In this document: piece by piece, positions 10,300-47,592 of the stretch
Layout of the letters: each line of letters begins with the position of its first letter
Position numbering within the stretch: the first letter of the stretch is position 1
Source: Dethiobacter sp.
GTDB taxonomy: Bacteria > Bacillota > Dethiobacteria > DTU022 > UBA8154
Length of the DNA: 64,000 bases
Direction of reading: 5' to 3'
Assembly: GCA_003605065.1 (NCBI GenBank)
Contig: QZJM01000049.1
Coordinates: forward strand, 208-64,207
Notes under the pieces: model-generated
The model's database searches: none
What the model was told of the DNA's origin: nothing
What the model saw: only the letters and a program-made list of their open reading frames with translations
Position numbers and translations under genes: made by a program

Positions 10300-10612
10300 A
10301 TAAATTAAAAAAGCCTCTTGCCCAAATAAGGACGAGAGGCTTGCTTTCGCGGTGCCACCTTAATTGCCGGTAAAAATAATTAACCAGCATCTTTCTCAGG
10401 TACGGCCCAAAATTGCGTGGGCGATACCCTGAACTCTGCTAACGGTGCTCACTCCGGCAAAAACTACTAGGTAATAACCGTTCGTCATGCAATTCTTGAG
10501 TCCATTCGCTCTCTGCGCCTGGACCGGGCTCACACCTTTTCCCGGTTCTCTGGGCCTTCGCTCGAGAGTTACTAGTCTCATTCATAATTTTTTACATTAT
10601 GATGTTAGTTCT
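10300..10612 (-). promoter_or_regulatory. T-box riboswitch leader, putative Trp (UGG) specifier, with intrinsic terminator
   Basis: Minus strand reads AATTAAGGTGGCACCGCGAAAGCAAGCCTCTCGTCC...GGCAAGAGGCTTTTTT (T-box 14-mer plus terminator). Stem I carries AGAGAG-CGAA-UGG-A-CUCAAG, matching the GAA-codon-A specifier context. A second GC hairpin plus U-run lies at about 10241-10260. Confidence 0.75.
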
Positions 10613-18969: not shown

Positions 18970-19300
18970 AGATCAAAAAACTTCCATCCCATAGGGACGG
19001 AAGTTTAATCTTCACGCGGTACCACCCTGGTTAGGCACATAGTGCCCCCCTCTTATTAGAGTACGGACCAGAATTTTCCGCCCGATACCCTTAATACATA
19101 GTGCTTTTCAGCAGTGGTGTCAGGTACGGACTGAAAGCATTCCAGTCTTATACCCCCTTCCTTTTAACGGTGGAAGTTTCCGTCAAAGCCTACTAACCGT
19201 TAAGGCGTTATCGGCTTTCGGTTTGCTTCTCAGGAGTGTATTTCAGCAATTTAGGACACCGGGTCGCACCATCCCCCGGCTCTCTGAGATCCGTTTATTA
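18970..19300 (-). promoter_or_regulatory. T-box riboswitch leader (complete), putative Tyr (UAC) specifier, terminator 18974-19006
   Basis: Minus strand reads AACCAGGGTGGTACCGCGTGAAGATTAAACTTCCGTCCCTATGGGATGGAAGTTTTTT. Upstream are an F-box-like CCGTTAAAAGG and a Stem I carrying AGAGAG...GAUGGUG...GAAAUACAC (AA-UAC-A). Confidence 0.7.
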
Positions 19301-19386
19301 CCTACTTCTCTCCGTCATCGCTTTACTTAATTTTCTTGTACCGAACCGATGTTTAACCGGTAATACCAGCTTCTTCTCTACCTTTT

Positions 19387-40499: not shown

Positions 40500-40535
40500 G
40501 CGCGCCAGTTTAAGTTCGGCCGCCTTTTTAATTCA
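40500..40535. terminator. bidirectional intrinsic terminator AAAAGGCGcgccagtttaagttcggcCGCCTTTTT
   Basis: A perfect 8-bp GC-containing stem flanked by an A-run and a T-run. Lies downstream of the DUF1343 gene and upstream of the kor promoter. Confidence 0.6.
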
Positions 40536-40562
40536 TTATTGTAACCTACAAGGTCATAATGG

Positions 40563-42113
40563 TTAGTTTATGGTAACCGTTTGCAAATAGGCATTCCAGT
40601 GAACCCGGGCATCAAGATATTCACCCACATAGCGCACGGGGACCATTGTCCGGCCGTTTTTAATTACGGGGACTGTATCCATGCTTCTCAATTCACCGTT
40701 AACAACAGCCGAGGTGCTGTCAACGGTAAAGATGATTCTCTTCCCCGGCCTCGTAATGGTAATAATCCTTGCCTGGGCGTCCCAATCCACTGCTGCTCCC
40801 AAGGCCTCGGCTATAGCCCTGAGTGGAACCATGAGACGGCTATTCCTGTCAATATAGGGAACGGAGTCAAAAAGCACCGGCCTGCCGCCAACCGTCACCG
40901 TAATATCCTCCGGCCTGAGTTCATAGTCACTGATAAGATATTTTTTTCTTTCATCTTTAAACCTGTTCAGTGCAGGGGCATAATTCATTTCGATTTGCTG
41001 CGGGGATAGTCCCCGTTCCAGGTACTCACCAATTTTATTCGTTCCCATAACTTTATCGAACATGACCATCATGTTCTGTCCACTTTTGGGCACTTTAAAG
41101 TTACCAAGGGAATAAGCATAGGTTAAAGCATATATGCCTGTCCTGGCCGGATTAAACGTATAGGGGTCAACGATTTTTAACCTGACGCCCCCGGCTTCTC
41201 CCCGTTGTTCGGGAATAAAAGTCACCCCCGGAAAACCTGCCTGGTTGAGAAGGTCGGCATATTTCCCGGCATCAAGTCCTTTCCCGCCGATCCACTTAAA
41301 CTTATCCGCCTGAAAGATCCCCGTCCCTTCTCCCAAACCGGTAGCCATATAGCCAAAAACAGAATCCAAATCGGGAATATTGGGGGATGTCTGCACCCAG
41401 GTCAACCCGGTATCCTGGAATAACATCGTTCTCTTATAACCTTCCATGGGGACCACTTTTAGATCGGCCCCGATATTTCGATTGAAGAATCGTGCCAGTT
41501 CCCCCACCGTCATCCCGTGAGCCATGGGTAAATTATCCACGCCGACAAAAGTTTTATAAGGATCTTCCAGCACGGGCCCTTCCACTATTCTACCCCCCAG
41601 CGGGTTAGGCCGATCCAGGACAACTATCGTTTTCTTATATTTCTGAGCCGCCACCATGCAGTAATTTAAAGTTGAGATGTAAGTATAAGTTCGTGCCCCG
41701 ATATCCTGCATATCAAAAAGAAGCACGTCAACATTGCGCAGCATCTCCCCGGTGGGCATTCTTGTTTTCCCGTACAGGCTGTACACAGGTATTCCCAGTT
41801 TTTCGTGAATATAGGACTCTACGTATTCCCCGGCTTTGGCCTTACCGTCAATGCCGTGCTCAGGGCCAAAGAGCGCTACCAGATGGGTTGATTGATCGGA
41901 TGCCAGTATATCAATAGTACTCTCTCCCCTGCTGTTTACCCCGCTTTGATTTGTAATCAGCCCGACTTTTTTCCCCTCTATCAAATAGTAATACTTGCTC
42001 ATTAAATTCTCACTGCCGAGCTTAACCCTGGAAGTCTCCATACAAACAGCAAAATTAGCAGGAAATGCCAGTACAGCAACAAGAACTATCAGGGAAATTA
42101 TTTTTTTACTCAT
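40563..42113 (-). CDS. DUF1343 (NamZ/YbbC-like exo-beta-N-acetylmuramidase family) protein with signal peptide and C-terminal copper amine oxidase N-terminal-like (CuAO_N1) repeats
   Basis: The track ORF runs to 42200. The probable start is the ATG at 42113 (MSKKIISLIVLVAVLAFP, a signal peptide) with RBS AAAGGAGATAAG. The DUF1343 core is followed by two CuAO_N1-like repeats (...RLMVPLRAIAEALGAAVDWD...). Confidence 0.7.
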   Translation of the reverse strand: MSKKIISLIVLVAVLAFPANFAVCMETSRVKLGSENLMSKYYYLIEGKKVGLITNQSGVNSRGESTIDILASDQSTHLVALFGPEHGIDGKAKAGEYVESYIHEKLGIPVYSLYGKTRMPTGEMLRNVDVLLFDMQDIGARTYTYISTLNYCMVAAQKYKKTIVVLDRPNPLGGRIVEGPVLEDPYKTFVGVDNLPMAHGMTVGELARFFNRNIGADLKVVPMEGYKRTMLFQDTGLTWVQTSPNIPDLDSVFGYMATGLGEGTGIFQADKFKWIGGKGLDAGKYADLLNQAGFPGVTFIPEQRGEAGGVRLKIVDPYTFNPARTGIYALTYAYSLGNFKVPKSGQNMMVMFDKVMGTNKIGEYLERGLSPQQIEMNYAPALNRFKDERKKYLISDYELRPEDITVTVGGRPVLFDSVPYIDRNSRLMVPLRAIAEALGAAVDWDAQARIITITRPGKRIIFTVDSTSAVVNGELRSMDTVPVIKNGRTMVPVRYVGEYLDARVHWNAYLQTVTIN

Positions 42114-42181
42114 CTTATCTCCTTTCATTGGCCGGTTGTCTCCTAAAATAACATATAAAAGACACTTTTCCGGGGAATATG

Positions 42182-42928
42182 TCACTTTCCTCCACCCCAT
42201 CTCCAGACCAGGATAAAACCAGCAATAAAAGCAAGAAATACCGGAATGTTAAAAAAAGCGGGCAACAGTACCCTGGCCGAACCGGCGATTAAGCCTGCAA
42301 AAAAATAAGCTGTAGGGGCCTGATACCGGGAATAAAGCTTATCCAAAACCTTTGCCAGGAAAAAAATGCCAAGCAGGCAGCCGGCACCAAAAATGAAGAG
42401 GTTAATCAGGGCAAACTCCTTAATATAAAAGAGCACATCGTCATATATCCCCAGAAGAATCAACACCGAACTTCCGGGTATACCCGGAATCAACATGGTG
42501 GCGCTGGAAAAAGCTCCCCCCAGAACCAGGACGGCCCAGTTTATTTCGCTGCTTTCCGCAACAATACCGAGGGGTTCATTGGCCAGGAGAAAAGCTAAAA
42601 GGAACCCCGCTGCCAGGATTAGTATCCTGCCGGCGCTGGGGTGGGGGCGGCTGTTAAATACAGTCTTGATGGAGGCCAGCAGGAGCCCCATAAGAAAAGC
42701 AGAAGTTATATCGCGGTAAGAGGCAAAAAGCATGGAAAAAAAGAAACCCCCGACAAATATACCCCCAATGGTCCCACAGACTAAAGGCAAGTACGGTTTA
42801 AGATTAAACCTGGAAAGGTCGTTTATGATCTTTTCATAAAGTCCCAGGATTATAAAAGCTGTCCCCCCGCTCATTCCCGGCAGGACAATGACAAATCCCA
42901 GAATGATTCCTTTAAGGATCGAATGCAA
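42182..42928 (-). CDS. DUF368-family polytopic membrane protein (family recently assigned as undecaprenyl-phosphate translocase UptA/PopT)
   Basis: 248 aa, very hydrophobic, with a two-fold internal repeat (LPGMSGGTAFIILGLYE / IPGIPGSSVLILLGIYD) typical of DUF368. Confidence 0.55.
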   Translation of the reverse strand: MHSILKGIILGFVIVLPGMSGGTAFIILGLYEKIINDLSRFNLKPYLPLVCGTIGGIFVGGFFFSMLFASYRDITSAFLMGLLLASIKTVFNSRPHPSAGRILILAAGFLLAFLLANEPLGIVAESSEINWAVLVLGGAFSSATMLIPGIPGSSVLILLGIYDDVLFYIKEFALINLFIFGAGCLLGIFFLAKVLDKLYSRYQAPTAYFFAGLIAGSARVLLPAFFNIPVFLAFIAGFILVWRWGGGK

Positions 42929-43419
42929 AAAAAATACTCCTCTCTAAAAGGCCGGAAAATATTAAAGCCGGAAATCGGCACGGCAACATGAATTTTTTAA
43001 GCGCAAACGGTGAATGTTGCATTAACATTATCGGTACTCTTTCTGTAAAAATTTCTTTCTTCCTGCAAGTTATACGGCTTTACTCTAAAAAAAGCCGGGA
43101 TCCTGAACGGCTTCCCGGTTTTTATAAATTCATCATTTTTTTAAGTTGTTCTCCAAGCTTTTTAATTATTCCCTGCTCAGAGGAATTTTAAACTCATTAA
43201 TTATACTCCCGTCCCTGGCACTATAGGCAAAAACCCGTAATATCATTTTTTGGGGAACGTCTTCAGGAACGGAAATTATGTAAACTCCTCCCTCAATAAA
43301 AGTATTTTGTACTTCTCCTTAAAGAACCATTTACCTTCACAGTCCATATAATGAAGTAACCTGCAGCGAAAATCAGTGCGTAAACATAAAAAATATTTTG
43401 CGAAGTCAGGTGATCTCTA

Positions 43420-43671
43420 ATGACCATTAAACTCGTAAAAGAGAAATACGAAAAGCTTTTAATGCGCAACCCCAACGTTATATGTGTAGGTACCGGTTCG
43501 AAAGCAAACAAAGAAATAATTAAGATTTTTGTAAAGCAAAAGGCACAGGAGCAGCTGTTAAAGTCGGAAGAGAGCATCCCTGGTGAACTGGATGGATTTG
43601 AAACCGATGTAGAAGAAATTGGGGAAGTGACATCGCTAACGGTTAAAATAAAGGAGGAAAGCTTACCGTGA
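43420..43671 (+). CDS. small protein paralogous to the N-terminal domain of the downstream peptidase
   Basis: 83 aa with RBS AGGTGAT. NPNVICVGTGSK...KEIIKIFVKQKAQEQLL aligns with RANVIGMGVGMK...EPALVVLVTHKKAREEL of ORF 43668..44717. GTGA stop/start overlap. Confidence 0.55.
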   Translation: MTIKLVKEKYEKLLMRNPNVICVGTGSKANKEIIKIFVKQKAQEQLLKSEESIPGELDGFETDVEEIGEVTSLTVKIKEESLP

Positions 43672-44717
43672 GGGAAGGTAAAAATAAAATGATGCTGTCA
43701 GCAGCGAATATTGAAAGCGCACAAAAAGCTCACAGTATAGCTGCTGACGATTTTCTAGATACTGCACACCGCCGGGCCAATGTCATCGGCATGGGAGTAG
43801 GGATGAAATGGAAAAATGCTCAACCTACAGGCGAACCGGCTCTTGTGGTTCTGGTAACACACAAAAAGGCCAGAGAAGAGCTATGCTCCTCTGACCTGAT
43901 TCCTGAGAAACTGGCCGGTATGCAAATCGATGTCTTGGCCATAGGCTATCCCCTTGCTGGCGGAGGGGAAATAATGGAAAATCCCGCACAAACTCTTGCC
44001 AGGCAAATACGCCCGGTAAAAGGCGGTTTCAGCGTAGGGCACAAAAATATTACAGCGGGTACCATTGCCACCTGCATTTATAATATTTTGCCGGAAAACA
44101 GTACCAGTGCACACAATTACGGAACTGGCATACCGGGCAGGTACTACATTCTCAGCAACAATCATGTCCTTGCCAACAGCAACCTGGCTGCTCCCGGTGA
44201 CCCCATTCTCCAACCCGGCCCTTTTGACGGAGGCATGTACCCGAGGGATCGCATCGCCACCCTGAGCCGCTTTGTTCCCATTACCTTCGAACCCCCGGTT
44301 CCCAGGGAGAAACACCACAACCTCGTGGATGCAGCCATTGCCGAAGGGGAATTTCATAACCTGAATCGAGAAATCTACTGGATCGGACACGTCCGTGGCT
44401 GGAGACCCAAAAATGAAATTACCGTAGGTATATATGTACAAAAGACGGGGCGTACCACAAATTATTCCGTCGGTAGGATTACGGCGATAAACGCTACAGT
44501 GGATATAAGCTACGATGCTGGGAGAACGGCCAGGTTTAAAGACCAGATTATTACCACGAATATTTCTGCCGGTGGGGATTCCGGTTCCCTGGTAACCACG
44601 CTGGACAATGTAGCTATCGGACTGCTTTTTGCAGGTTCATCTATCGCCACCATTGTCAATCAGATCGAAAACGTGCGTTCTTTGCTTCAGGTAGAAATAG
44701 CTGAGGAAATACTTTAA
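43668..44717 (+). CDS. chymotrypsin-fold (S1-like) serine peptidase with N-terminal extra domain
   Basis: 349 aa with a candidate catalytic triad: His in SNNHVLAN, Asp in HNLVDAAIAEG, Ser in GGDSGSLV. GTG start 10 nt after an AAGGAGG RBS. Confidence 0.6.
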   Translation: MREGKNKMMLSAANIESAQKAHSIAADDFLDTAHRRANVIGMGVGMKWKNAQPTGEPALVVLVTHKKAREELCSSDLIPEKLAGMQIDVLAIGYPLAGGGEIMENPAQTLARQIRPVKGGFSVGHKNITAGTIATCIYNILPENSTSAHNYGTGIPGRYYILSNNHVLANSNLAAPGDPILQPGPFDGGMYPRDRIATLSRFVPITFEPPVPREKHHNLVDAAIAEGEFHNLNREIYWIGHVRGWRPKNEITVGIYVQKTGRTTNYSVGRITAINATVDISYDAGRTARFKDQIITTNISAGGDSGSLVTTLDNVAIGLLFAGSSIATIVNQIENVRSLLQVEIAEEIL

Positions 44718-44743
44718 GGTGCTGCCCTTTATGAATGAATAGA

Positions 44744-46027
44744 TCAAGACAGGTATTTCCTGGCCAGCGCCATAAGGAAGTCAGCTTTAAAATAAAGGCT
44801 GGGTACGTCTATTCTTTCATTTTTGCCATGAATTGTCGTCCTGACATCCTGGTCAAATTCCCGGGCCATATGACCGATACCATAAGAAGGTATGCCTGCA
44901 CTGCGCAGGAATCTTGAATCTGTGGCCCCGGGGGAAATATGCGGCAGACATGAAATTTCTTCTCCTGCCATTTCCCTGGTTATGCTCTCTATCAGCCGGT
45001 AGTAGTCCGACTGGGAAGTTGAAAAGGTCGGTGCCACATAGTTGTCAATTTCAATAAGGATATCCTCTCCCAGGTAGCGGCGCAGTTCACCAATCACGTA
45101 TTTTTGATCCTGCCCCGGAAGAATCCTGATATCAATACTGGCAGAACAAAAATCAGGAACAATATTGGTTTTACTTCCGCCTCCGATAACGTTTGGAGAA
45201 ACAGTCATCCTTGTCATGGCGCGGAGGGTTTCGGCAAAACTTTTGTCGTCAAACCCGTTTAGTAAAATATCCACGTTTTCCTTCTTCACTGCCCCATCCA
45301 GTCCTTTCAGGCGCAGCAGCTCCTGCAGCAGGCATTCCACTTCGGGAATTAACCTGCTTTCCGGTTCATAGCCTGCCAGGTTATTTAGCGCCCGGGCCAT
45401 CTTTAGTACGGCATTGTCGCCCAGTGCCGGAACAGAGCCGTGGCAGGATTTCCCTGCTGCCTGGAGTTTACTCCAGGCCGTTCCCTTTTCTCCGACCTGG
45501 ATGAAGTAAATCATCCGGCCGTTCCAAAAAACAGGCTCCTCTCCACCCTCGTTAACGGCAAAATCCGCCTGAATTTTTTCCGGGCAGTTTTCCAGGAGGT
45601 ATTTTATACCGAAATGACCACCTTTCTCTTCATCTGCGGTTGCAGCCAGGATTAATGTGCCGTTAAGCGGCACAACTTCCCTGGCGAGCTGTAATAAAGT
45701 GTAAACCTGGGCAGCCATTAACCCCTTGCAATCCAGGGCACCCCGACCGTAAACCACCCCATTACAGATATCGCCGCAGAACGGGTCAAAATCCCATCCT
45801 TCACCAGCAGGCACCACATCGGAATGAGAGAGAAAAAGAAGTTTTTTAGAACCTGAACCAAGCCTGGCGATAATATTGGCACGGTCTTTTGCTGATTCCA
45901 TAATTTCATAAGGGATCCTGGCGGCGTCAAAGAGCTCTTTAAGATAACTGACCACCCTGATTTCATTTCCCGGAGGGTTAACCGTGTTCAGGCGAATTAG
46001 ATCGGAAAGAATACGTTCCGGGGTCAC
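44744..46027 (-). CDS. M20-family metallopeptidase (ArgE/DapE/dipeptidase-like)
   Basis: 427 aa with HSDVVP, the GRGALDCKG metal-binding signature and ATADEEKGG. Confidence 0.85.
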   Translation of the reverse strand: MTPERILSDLIRLNTVNPPGNEIRVVSYLKELFDAARIPYEIMESAKDRANIIARLGSGSKKLLFLSHSDVVPAGEGWDFDPFCGDICNGVVYGRGALDCKGLMAAQVYTLLQLAREVVPLNGTLILAATADEEKGGHFGIKYLLENCPEKIQADFAVNEGGEEPVFWNGRMIYFIQVGEKGTAWSKLQAAGKSCHGSVPALGDNAVLKMARALNNLAGYEPESRLIPEVECLLQELLRLKGLDGAVKKENVDILLNGFDDKSFAETLRAMTRMTVSPNVIGGGSKTNIVPDFCSASIDIRILPGQDQKYVIGELRRYLGEDILIEIDNYVAPTFSTSQSDYYRLIESITREMAGEEISCLPHISPGATDSRFLRSAGIPSYGIGHMAREFDQDVRTTIHGKNERIDVPSLYFKADFLMALARKYLS

Positions 46028-46302
46028 TTCTTAGTATCACTCCTTGAATTATTATTGGCGCAAGGGTCACAACTATGGAGAAAAAACCCGAACTTAACTG
46101 GTACGCCTCTTTCCACCTTGGGCGGAAATGTTACCGTTGCTTTAATCAGCAAGTTCGGAATTAAAAAGCGCGAGGAGCGAAGGTTAAGGAGGCCAACTGT
46201 TTGAGCGAAGCGAGTTGTTGGCCGACTCCTTAAGCGACGAGCGCTACCTTAGTGTGGGTTGAACTTGCCTAAAGCAACGGAAACTTTCCGGCCGTTTTCG
46301 TA

Positions 46303-47592
46303 CTAACTGCTTTTGGCTTCTGCCCTTAGTATAACCTCGGCTGAAGGTTTTTTAAGCAGCAGCGATCCGGCAAGGCCGATCATGGAAATAAGGGCAGCCG
46401 CAGTAAAAGCCAGGGTGAAAGTCCCCGTTTTATCAGCAATAAATCCCCCCAGAGCCGGGCCGAGCGCCTGCCCAGTTCCAAAAAACAGGGAAATAAAACC
46501 CACGCCTGCAGGGGCAAGCTGCGGCCCCACGTAGTCCCCCGCCGCCGCGGCCATGATTGTAGGTATGCTCCAGGCACTTAGACCAAATAACACCAGGGAA
46601 ACATAGAAAGCTCCCATGGAATTAAAAAGGGCAAAAATAATATAGGAACAGGCCAGCGTTAGATAAGCCAGCGCCGCGCCATATTTTCTCCCCAAAATGT
46701 CGGAAATCCCTCCCCAGATGACCCCGCAAAAGATGCTAAGCCCCCCTACCAGCGCCCACATGGCACTGGCCTGACCAACGGAAATGCCTATCTCCTCAGT
46801 AAGAAAAGCTTTGAAAAATGTCATGTAGATAACGTAAGAAAAACCGTACATAAAGTACACAATACCTATATGCCAGACCTCTTTTACACGGTACACCAGT
46901 CTCCACTGCAGGTTACTGGGGCGCCCCGCCGCAGGTGCCGGTGCCGGGTTGTCCACTGATGCTGCTGCCCCCACAGGTAGCAGGCCGAGATCTGCGGGCC
47001 GGTTTCTGAGGAAAGCATAACAAACACCGGAGATAACCAGCACCAGCCCACCGAGGTAATACCAGGAATACGACCAACCCCGGGTACCATAAGTAATAAG
47101 AATAAGGGGAACAATAAGGCCGGAAATAAATGTGCCCACGCCGATACCACCGGAGACAATACCTGTAGCAAAACCCCGGCGCTTCATGGCAAACCAGGTT
47201 GAACCCAAGGCCATGGCCGGCACATAAGATCCCCCGTTTCCAATTCCGCTAAGCAAGCGCATGGCAAAAGCGAACTCGAAAGAACCGGCCATGCCTGTTA
47301 ACAGCATGGTAATTCCCATCAGCAGCAAAGAAAGGGAAATAACGATCCGGCTGCCGTACCTGGCAGCGAGAAATCCGCCGATAAGTGCAAAAACAAGGTA
47401 TCCTATAAAATTACCCGTCCCCAACAGGCCTGATTGAGCCCAGGTCAATCCCAGGCCGTTACGCATCTCAGGAAGAATGAGGGTATAGGCCATCCTTCCA
47501 AAACCGTGCGCTCCAATAGTGGTAAGCATCCCCATAAAGATTACTACCCAGCCGTAATGAAATTTATGCGACTTTACCTGCGGTTTGCTCAT
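46303..47592 (-). CDS. MFS transporter
   Basis: 429 aa, 12 predicted TM segments, MFS signature loops. Confidence 0.8.
   Translation of the reverse strand: MSKPQVKSHKFHYGWVVIFMGMLTTIGAHGFGRMAYTLILPEMRNGLGLTWAQSGLLGTGNFIGYLVFALIGGFLAARYGSRIVISLSLLLMGITMLLTGMAGSFEFAFAMRLLSGIGNGGSYVPAMALGSTWFAMKRRGFATGIVSGGIGVGTFISGLIVPLILITYGTRGWSYSWYYLGGLVLVISGVCYAFLRNRPADLGLLPVGAAASVDNPAPAPAAGRPSNLQWRLVYRVKEVWHIGIVYFMYGFSYVIYMTFFKAFLTEEIGISVGQASAMWALVGGLSIFCGVIWGGISDILGRKYGAALAYLTLACSYIIFALFNSMGAFYVSLVLFGLSAWSIPTIMAAAAGDYVGPQLAPAGVGFISLFFGTGQALGPALGGFIADKTGTFTLAFTAAALISMIGLAGSLLLKKPSAEVILRAEAKSS

Follow-up and report, generated by a model that had tools for sequence, protein, structure and literature searches.

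A bacterial NAL1-type protease encoded together with a free-standing paralog of its N-terminal domain

Introduction

Why should a protease be encoded next to a second, separate copy of what looks like its own N-terminal domain? The question is raised by two genes in a 64,000-nucleotide (nt) stretch of Dethiobacter sp. DNA (contig QZJM01000049.1, positions 208 to 64,207; hereafter the window): a small gene and, directly downstream, a peptidase gene. A first-pass annotation, made from the sequence alone, had described them as an overlapping two-gene unit, and both open reading frames (ORFs) were confirmed in the sequence. NCBI annotation of the same Dethiobacter sp. metagenome-assembled genome (MAG) contains identical proteins of 349 and 83 amino acids (aa), both called 'hypothetical'. 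The features on which the analysis rests are the following.

43420-43671, plus strand: small gene, ATG start, 83 aa (ORF list)
43668-44717, plus strand: peptidase gene, GTG start, 349 aa (ORF list)
43652-43671, plus strand: gene junction, with AGGAGG at 43652-57, GTG at 43668-70 and TGA at 43669-71 (read from the sequence)
43707-43967, plus strand: N-terminal domain of the peptidase, residues 14-100, with helix 12-29 and strands 39-49, 52-63 and 85-91 (model and profiles)
44010-44714, plus strand: two-barrel chymotrypsin-fold protease domain, residues ~115-349 (model and profiles)
44163-65, 44328-30 and 44580-82, plus strand: catalytic codons of His166, Asp221 and Ser305 (sequence)

Results

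The small protein corresponds to the N-terminal domain of the peptidase

The two proteins were 33% identical over 60 aa in BLASTP (expectation value, E, 6e-6), and both were matched by the phage-protease profile phrog_20754, the small protein at the N-terminal end (E 4.5e-11) and the peptidase over the whole length (E 5.4e-59). Profile-profile comparison of the two families by hhalign gave a probability of 97.2% (E 4.3e-11, 74 columns) and paired small-protein residues 2-75 with peptidase residues 14-100. Therefore, the small protein represents the entire N-terminal domain, including its leading helix. Among 31 members of the small family, 29 matched the Pfam family NAL1_N and no other family was matched consistently; a 'Proteasome' match (E 0.017; one of the 31 members) was dismissed as chance. 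By these comparisons, the small protein is a free-standing paralog of the peptidase N-terminal domain (NAL1_N, or ATP-binding-domain-like). The paralogy that the first-pass annotation had proposed thus lies far beyond chance by all three methods, and the profile-profile result shows that it is not spurious. The stretch that it had delimited, peptidase residues ~35-110, turned out to be somewhat longer and to take in the N-terminal helix.

The small protein (isoelectric point 5.2) consists of an N-terminal helix, a short beta-hairpin, the conserved residues K41, P54 and D63, and an acidic strand, TDVEEIG. K41 (63/67), P54 and D63 (59/67) are equivalent to K66, P79 and D88 of the peptidase. The core of the fold is likewise kept. 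The free and fused copies differ at two places. The hairpin of the small protein is 6-7 residues shorter and lacks the invariant K-W-K...P-T-G-E-P tip of the fused copy, which corresponds to the triphosphate loop of rice NAL1. The last strand reads TDVEEIG (E65 in 58/67, E66 in 63/67) against TDVLAIG in the fused domain, and the chain terminates only 6-8 residues beyond it, with the conserved tail ...EEIGxVTAQ. In PDB and Pfam searches, the small protein showed no similarity to the NAL1 N-terminal region or to alpha-lytic Pro regions; the NAL1 ATP-binding domain alone was matched. All of its 975 homologs are annotated 'hypothetical'.

The peptidase is a bacterial NAL1-type protease

Searches with the single peptidase sequence were of limited use: NAL1_N (E 3e-4, below the gathering score) and Trypsin_2 were sub-threshold and the S1E matches weak. 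NCBIfam gave sub-threshold matches only for the peptidase (E 0.19 and 0.66) and none for the small protein. Most close peptidase homologs, however, carry a precomputed match to PF25608 (NAL1_N). We built a family profile from an alignment of 89 diverse relatives and used it both for a profile search of the PDB and for an AlphaFold model. Rice NAL1 was the top PDB match (E 6e-19), aligned from the N-terminal domain through the catalytic His and then over the C-terminal barrel with GDSGS; the alignment to NAL1 residues 113-235 had E of about 1e-9. The model had a predicted local distance difference test (pLDDT) score of 93.3 and a predicted template modelling score of 0.92, whereas a shallower alignment of 52 close homologs had given a pLDDT of only 39.6. 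It runs from helix 12-29 through the three strands listed above and a linker to two beta-barrels. A Foldseek search of the PDB gave rice NAL1 chains as its 34 top matches, all at full length (E 6e-17 to 1e-12, TM-scores 0.60-0.66); next came alpha-lytic protease, Streptomyces griseus protease B (SGPB) and Lysobacter L1/L5, which matched in the protease domain only.

The motifs NNHVLA, LVDAAIA and GDSGS are all present. H166, D221 and S305 are invariant in the 52 close homologs; in the diverse set of 89, this still holds for D221, and the conservation of H166 and S305 is 90% or higher. In the profile alignment, the two motifs with His and Ser line up with H234 and S385 of NAL1. The chymotrypsin fold with His, Asp and Ser in order, as read in the first pass, is hence upheld; the statement that the peptidase could not be placed in a named family is superseded by the profile and Foldseek results.

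In rice NAL1, residues 89-172 form a non-canonical ATP-binding domain (ABD) that binds ATP structurally, is retained in the mature enzyme and packs onto the protease domain of the next subunit, giving trimers (PMC12012508). A construct of residues 88-458, i.e. the ABD and the protease domain, is an inactive trimer; beta-strand 1 of the N-terminal domain (NTD, residues 1-88) staples two trimers into the active hexameric cage (D3), beta-11 is also used in this stapling, and activity depends strictly on the oligomeric state (PMC12012508). PDB entries 7Y77, 8PME, 8PMG, 8PMM and 8HAS were the NAL1 structures named for comparison. The ATP-contact residues of NAL1 correspond to the following peptidase positions in an ungapped alignment.

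NAL1 R120: peptidase K47, conserved in 67/67
NAL1 R122: peptidase K49, K or R in 55/67
NAL1 K139: peptidase K66, conserved in 67/67
NAL1 D166: peptidase D88, conserved in 67/67

The ATP contact K123 of NAL1 falls on N50, where K is found in 10/67. The hairpin tip K47-W48-K49...P53-T54-G55-E56-P57 together with K66 and D88 makes up the equivalents of the NAL1 ATP contacts, and the ATP-Mg residues of NAL1 appear from this alignment to be conserved in the peptidase. Strand 195-202 of the model would be the positional counterpart of NAL1 beta-11, as suggested by its spacing after the catalytic His.

By hydropathy, both proteins are free of signal peptides and transmembrane segments. As NAL1 is the best match by profile and by full-length fold, and the triad and the presumed ATP-contact residues are kept, we concluded that the peptidase is a cytoplasmic bacterial NAL1-type protease composed of NAL1_N (PF25608) and an S1 domain. 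Two other assignments were rejected. The S1E streptogrisin/alpha-lytic family was ruled out by the lack of a signal peptide and by the absence of Pro-region matches for the N-terminal domain, and HtrA/DegP by the lack of a PDZ domain, the sub-threshold Trypsin_2 score and the insignificance of the HtrA matches. Cyanobacterial peptidases (L028, L029, L035-L038, L040, L042, L045, L049, L016) carry a ~30-aa insertion in the linker between the N-terminal and protease domains.

The pair is widespread and inherited together

The peptidase family gave >7,900 matches; the best among the matches listed were 65-85% identical to the window protein. In a scan of one genome per species, the peptidase was found in at least 505 species, which include Bacillota, Cyanobacteria, Acidobacteriota, Chloroflexota, Planctomycetota, Nitrospirota, Deinococcota, several proteobacterial classes, Patescibacteria and a thaumarchaeal MAG. 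We searched six frames of 80 species loci with hidden Markov models of the small family; one locus had no upstream DNA, which left 79 informative loci. The small paralog adjoins the peptidase in 74 of these 79 species genomes, spanning >15 phyla, and in an independent set of 80 metagenome loci the partner was found in 73 of 75 informative cases. Adjacent pairs number in the thousands in metagenomes. Typically, the small gene encodes 73-78 aa and ends 20-30 nt before the peptidase start. Copies occur in the cultured Nostoc, Meiothermus, Desulfotruncus and Methylomicrobium, and plasmids of Bacillus cereus/thuringiensis carry the pair too, under the names 'hypothetical protein' (76 aa) and 'S1 family peptidase'; the proteins of a B. 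cereus plasmid pair are WP_061656737.1 and WP_233937128.1. Clustering of all neighbouring ORFs revealed no third universally conserved gene, so that the neighbourhood survey suggested in the first pass leaves the small gene as the only conserved partner.

Both genes are under purifying selection. The median ratio of nonsynonymous to synonymous substitution rates (dN/dS) was 0.19 for the small gene and 0.16 for the peptidase gene (174 unsaturated pairs). Across phyla, the mean pairwise identity was 57% for the small protein, 63% for the N-terminal domain and 75% for the protease domain, and the pairwise identities of the small protein and the peptidase were correlated (r 0.74). The locus is a conserved bicistronic operon whose genes are inherited together.

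A further, exported subtype of the free domain

Alongside or instead of the canonical small gene, 24 of the 147 loci with any small-like gene (~16%) encode a second form of the free domain. This form bears a signal anchor, lipobox or signal peptide at the N-terminus and two hairpin cysteines (G-x-C-x5-C-I-x-V), and the conserved Lys is lost. All 11 cyanobacterial loci have its gene 5' of the canonical small gene; in several other lineages it is located 3' of the peptidase gene. The peptidases of these loci have no signal peptide, and the window has no gene of the exported type. The exported paralogs were located as follows.

Cyanobacterial loci: L035:3369-3714; also L016, L028, L029, L036-L038, L040, L042, L045 and L049
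Other loci: L056:5246-5564; L153:1455-1887; also L148, L152, L146, L149, L156, L181, L182, L185 and L187

The existence of this subtype suggests that the free domain is a versatile module; the domain has diversified into cytoplasmic and exported forms.

Relatives without the partner

Relatives below ~55% identity to the window peptidase, including copies in phage tail modules, have no partner gene. Those on viral contigs (31-42% identity) keep the N-domain and protease architecture without a separate small gene, and cellular relatives with 47-52% identity likewise have no small gene. Clustered at 50% identity, the wider superfamily falls into 10,848 clusters, of which the partnered clade appears to occupy only a few, since no listed representative scores like a typical clade member (best 434 bits vs 520-570 bits). 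The small partner thus characterises the most conserved clade. No natural fusion of the small protein to the peptidase was found among 150 cluster representatives; the apparent double-domain proteins among them were read-throughs of tandem protease genes.

The other five of the 79 species loci had no partner gene within the flanking DNA retrieved, and their peptidases keep the triad. Four of these five peptidases have a basic, Lys/Arg-rich N-terminal extension of ~20 aa, which may be an alternative to the small partner. Peptidases without a small gene in the fetched flanks were recorded at L008, L013 (same locus as L005), L072, L081, L184 and partly L043; an example of the basic extension is MGKKPAKAKKKSTQKKGEDT.

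Some distant relatives stand out by their setting. Phage relatives (L086:5950-6915, L100:5977-6966 and other viral contigs within L086-L108) lie among tail, baseplate-hub and tail-fibre genes, and the archaeal Aeropyrum coil-shaped virus (HE681887.1, 10553-11458) encodes a relative annotated 'putative serine protease'. The Clostridium novyi plasmid pCN2 (L111; NZ_CP029460.1, 5943-24884) carries at least eight paralogous NAL1-like peptidase genes within 11 kb, encoding proteins of 306-323 aa at about 33% identity, with small partner genes absent. Related C. botulinum/novyi plasmids have 11-25 matching places per record.

Junction and surroundings of the pair

The small gene and the peptidase gene share a 4-nt GTGA, made up of the GTG start of the latter (43668-70) and the TGA stop of the former (43669-71), and the Shine-Dalgarno sequence AGGAGG (43652-57) lies 10 nt 5' of this GTG. 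The GTGA had been taken to imply roughly 1:1 co-expression. Tight linkage makes co-transcription and co-expression likely; the overlap is, however, lineage-specific (window, L006, L012 and L027), most loci having a 20-30-nt spacer, and a 1:1 ratio is unsupported.

The pair is the sole plus-strand unit between 35774 and 50340, as the first-pass annotation had noted for this minus-strand run. The hint of acquisition that it saw in this arrangement found no local support: the GC content of the peptidase gene is not anomalous, and synteny with the closest relative is complete. Mobility on a long timescale does fit the plasmid copies and the patchy distribution over the phyla. Contig L006 (JAGVAS010000069.1, labelled as a Desulfovibrio sp. 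MAG) is collinear with positions 40518-47097 of the window, with an amino-acid identity of roughly 84-96%; its source is evidently a close relative, and the Desulfovibrio label looks wrong. The flanking genes are of housekeeping type and unrelated to the pair (NamZ-like muramidase, VCA0040-like membrane protein, M20 peptidase, major facilitator superfamily transporter and Sir2 protein). One further feature lies upstream.

42929-43419, no strand assigned: intergenic region upstream of the small gene, AT-rich, GC 0.37-0.39 (composition)

The operon promoter is presumably located in this region, where no consensus promoter or sigma-70-like site was found on the plus strand and no Rfam element was matched. 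A 186-aa antisense ORF inside the peptidase gene (43881-44441, minus strand) was rejected as a shadow ORF; equivalents are present in all homologous loci because the peptidase gene is so conserved. Elsewhere in the window, T-box leader RNAs were detected at 10325-10594 and 18990-19327, both on the minus strand (108 and 115 bits, above the Rfam gathering threshold).

Discussion

A proposed partner in the assembly of a NAL1-type oligomer

What, then, would the free domain do for the protease? By analogy with rice NAL1, we tentatively favour, at somewhat less than an even chance, a role for the small protein as a stoichiometric partner without catalytic function, which would bind the protease and control the assembly or activity of a NAL1-type oligomer. 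It would dock on the protease and set the quaternary and hence the catalytic state; as an extra docking module supplied in trans, the free paralog would complete or gate the cage and so time protease activity. We propose this because the rice 88-458 equivalent is an inactive trimer in need of an additional N-terminal element, and the bacterial enzyme lacks that element and has a free copy of the docking domain instead. The first-pass annotation had listed a chaperone, an inhibitor or a decoy as candidate roles; since the NAL1 N-domain is retained, binds ATP and builds trimers, an assembly subunit has to be added to them. The slow evolution of the small protein along its whole length is consistent with this, as is the unusual conservation of the partnered clade (protease domain 75% identical across phyla) compared with the very diverse partner-less relatives (31-52% identity). 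We lean towards a structural or activating rather than a restraining net effect: some peptidases are intact without a nearby partner gene, and there is no defence or toxin-antitoxin signature, both of which favour a structural subunit over a pure inhibitor.

The pattern of charges gives a weak hint of direct contact. The small-protein D63 is non-acidic in 9 of 134 pairs, and the peptidase R243 is changed in 7 of those 9 vs ~10 of the other 125. This pattern was picked post hoc and ranks in the top 1% only, and we count it as weak because the unbiased ranking does not single out D63-R243/R246. In Meiothermus (L079, L080), and also in L015 and L025, the last strand of the small protein shows a charge reversal (D63R, E65R) where the peptidase has lost the conserved arginines R195, R243 and R246 and acquired E311, which may reflect a compensatory contact; the Meiothermus peptidase changes are R195L, R243Q, R246Q and T311E.

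Several observations weigh against the assembly-partner proposal. Unbiased covariation (mutual information) over the 134 pairs (effective number of sequences, Neff, 69) was noise, D63-R243 ranking 202nd and D63-R246 109th of 14,768, and with 67 pairs (Neff 42) the top-ranked inter-protein pairs also looked like noise. The hairpin tip that in NAL1 adjoins the ATP site at the trimer interface is missing from the small protein, which may therefore not dock as the fused domain does. The peptidase has a conserved N-terminal tail and helix of its own (M1, M8, L10; helix 12-29), and these could do the stapling unaided. Finally, ~16% of loci encode a paralog of the exported or lipoprotein type, and such a copy could not sit in a cytoplasmic cage.

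Alternative roles of the free domain

The main rival, which we consider rather unlikely, is a prodomain-like inhibitor or antitoxin-like restraint, in which the free paralog keeps the protease inactive until it is removed. It could compete for the docking site of the fused N-domain and so block oligomerisation, or place its C-terminal tail in the active-site cleft; the conserved ...EEIGxVTAQ tail does stop shortly past the last strand. The small gene is upstream and tightly coupled, as is usual for antitoxins, and the strict dependence of NAL1 activity on the oligomeric state implies that a mimic of the domain could be an effective switch. Stand-alone N-domain inhibitors also include Spi of SpeB and the MEROPS families I9 and I29. 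A clear precedent is the propeptide-like inhibitor of the Plasmodium subtilisin SUB1, a stand-alone copy of an N-domain (PMC6993865). On the other hand, simple competition is hard to reconcile with the missing hairpin tip, whose place in NAL1 is next to the trimer interface. Sequence change in the small protein is slow over its entire length (57% across phyla, dN/dS 0.19), unlike typical antitoxins and inhibitors; it has no DNA-binding module; the gene order is occasionally reversed or convergent; and the peptidases with no partner gene in the fetched flanks keep their triad, which speaks against an essential antidote. A type II toxin-antitoxin or known anti-phage defence system was rejected, as neither protein matched a PADLOC model.

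We give little chance to a trans-acting foldase of the alpha-lytic protease/streptogrisin kind, in which the fused and free copies would together mimic a two-domain Pro region. The N-domain occupies the exact place of the Pro region, and after NAL1 the protease domain is nearest to the Pro-dependent S1E enzymes (alpha-lytic protease, SGPB, Lysobacter L1/L5). But neither copy showed sequence similarity to alpha-lytic Pro regions, NAL1_N being all that PDB and Pfam returned; the NAL1 domain is retained in the mature enzyme, the partner-less relatives evidently fold without the small protein, and both proteins are cytoplasmic rather than secreted. Similarly improbable is that the small protein is an adaptor, decoy or substrate, cleaved by the protease or recruiting other proteins to it in the way of ClpS, an adaptor whose gene is upstream of that of its protease partner. 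The operon arrangement and co-inheritance would suit such a role, and the exported subtype suggests a versatile binding module whose role is not necessarily structural; however, there is no cleavage-site mark in the small-protein sequence, conservation over the whole length fits a folded domain and not a degron, and no conserved candidate cargo gene lies nearby.

Extending the assembly-partner reading, the small protein and the peptidase might form a nucleotide-held hetero-oligomeric proteolytic cage, for example 6+6, as the prokaryotic counterpart of NAL1. This would be an unrecognised bacterial and archaeal class of self-compartmentalised proteases, distinct from ClpP, HslV, Lon, the proteasome, HtrA and Tricorn, with the free domains as exchangeable regulatory subunits and the exported paralog as a link to the envelope. 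We regard this larger picture as speculative and unlikely.

Significance

NAL1 is a major rice yield gene, and its ATP-binding domain and hexameric cage were solved only in 2023-2025. The present data show that this architecture is found widely, and in strongly conserved form, among bacteria and in some archaea, and that the most conserved clade is almost always paired with a free N-domain. In the literature searched, there was nothing on prokaryotic NAL1 relatives and no paper with the term 'NAL1-like'. What is new here is a NAL1-type protease with a dedicated paralog of its oligomerisation domain encoded as a gene of its own. If the small protein is an assembly or regulatory subunit, the pair would represent a new type of regulated cytoplasmic cage protease and a tractable bacterial model for the control of activity by the NAL1 N-domain; in the case of an inhibitor, the 'propeptide-like inhibitor' principle would be extended to a domain that is not a propeptide.

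Comparison with known systems

The phage 'protease' family phrog_20754, whose profile matches both window proteins, has the same N-domain and protease order at 31-42% identity; its genes are, however, far more divergent, lie in tail/baseplate modules and have no separate small gene. The S1E proteases (alpha-lytic protease, Streptomyces griseus proteases A/B/E, Lysobacter L1/L5) are nearest in protease-domain fold and sequence after NAL1 (E 1e-8 to 1e-11) and likewise carry an accessory domain in front of the protease domain; in alpha-lytic protease, this Pro region can serve in trans both as foldase and as inhibitor (compare the title of PDB 1BOQ). S1E enzymes are secreted proteins that lose their Pro region by cleavage, whereas the peptidase described here has no signal peptide or hydrophobic N-terminus, its N-domain matches NAL1_N and not Pro_Al_protease, and the sequence alignment to S1E covers the C-terminal barrel only. 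With stand-alone propeptide-like inhibitors, such as the Plasmodium SUB1 propeptide-like protein (PMC6993865), the pair shares a free paralog of the N-terminal domain of a protease; those inhibitors belong to other protease clans, and the domain copied here is an oligomerisation/ATP-binding domain, not a demonstrated propeptide.

Rice NAL1 remains the closest known system, in spite of an identity of ~17%. The bacterial peptidase lacks the 88-aa NTD with its stapling strand as well as the C-terminal extension 459-582, and in the model ~35 residues (the tail and helix 12-29) precede the ATP-binding-like domain; it is also encoded beside a separate N-domain paralog, none being known for NAL1. The two proteins agree, on the other hand, in the order of a non-canonical ATP-binding domain followed by a chymotrypsin-fold serine protease domain, with a match in full-length fold and profile, in the His motif (LSNNHV in the peptidase, LTNHHV in NAL1) and the Ser motif (GDSGS in both), and in the presence of a strand in the bacterial peptidase where NAL1 has its beta-11 insertion.

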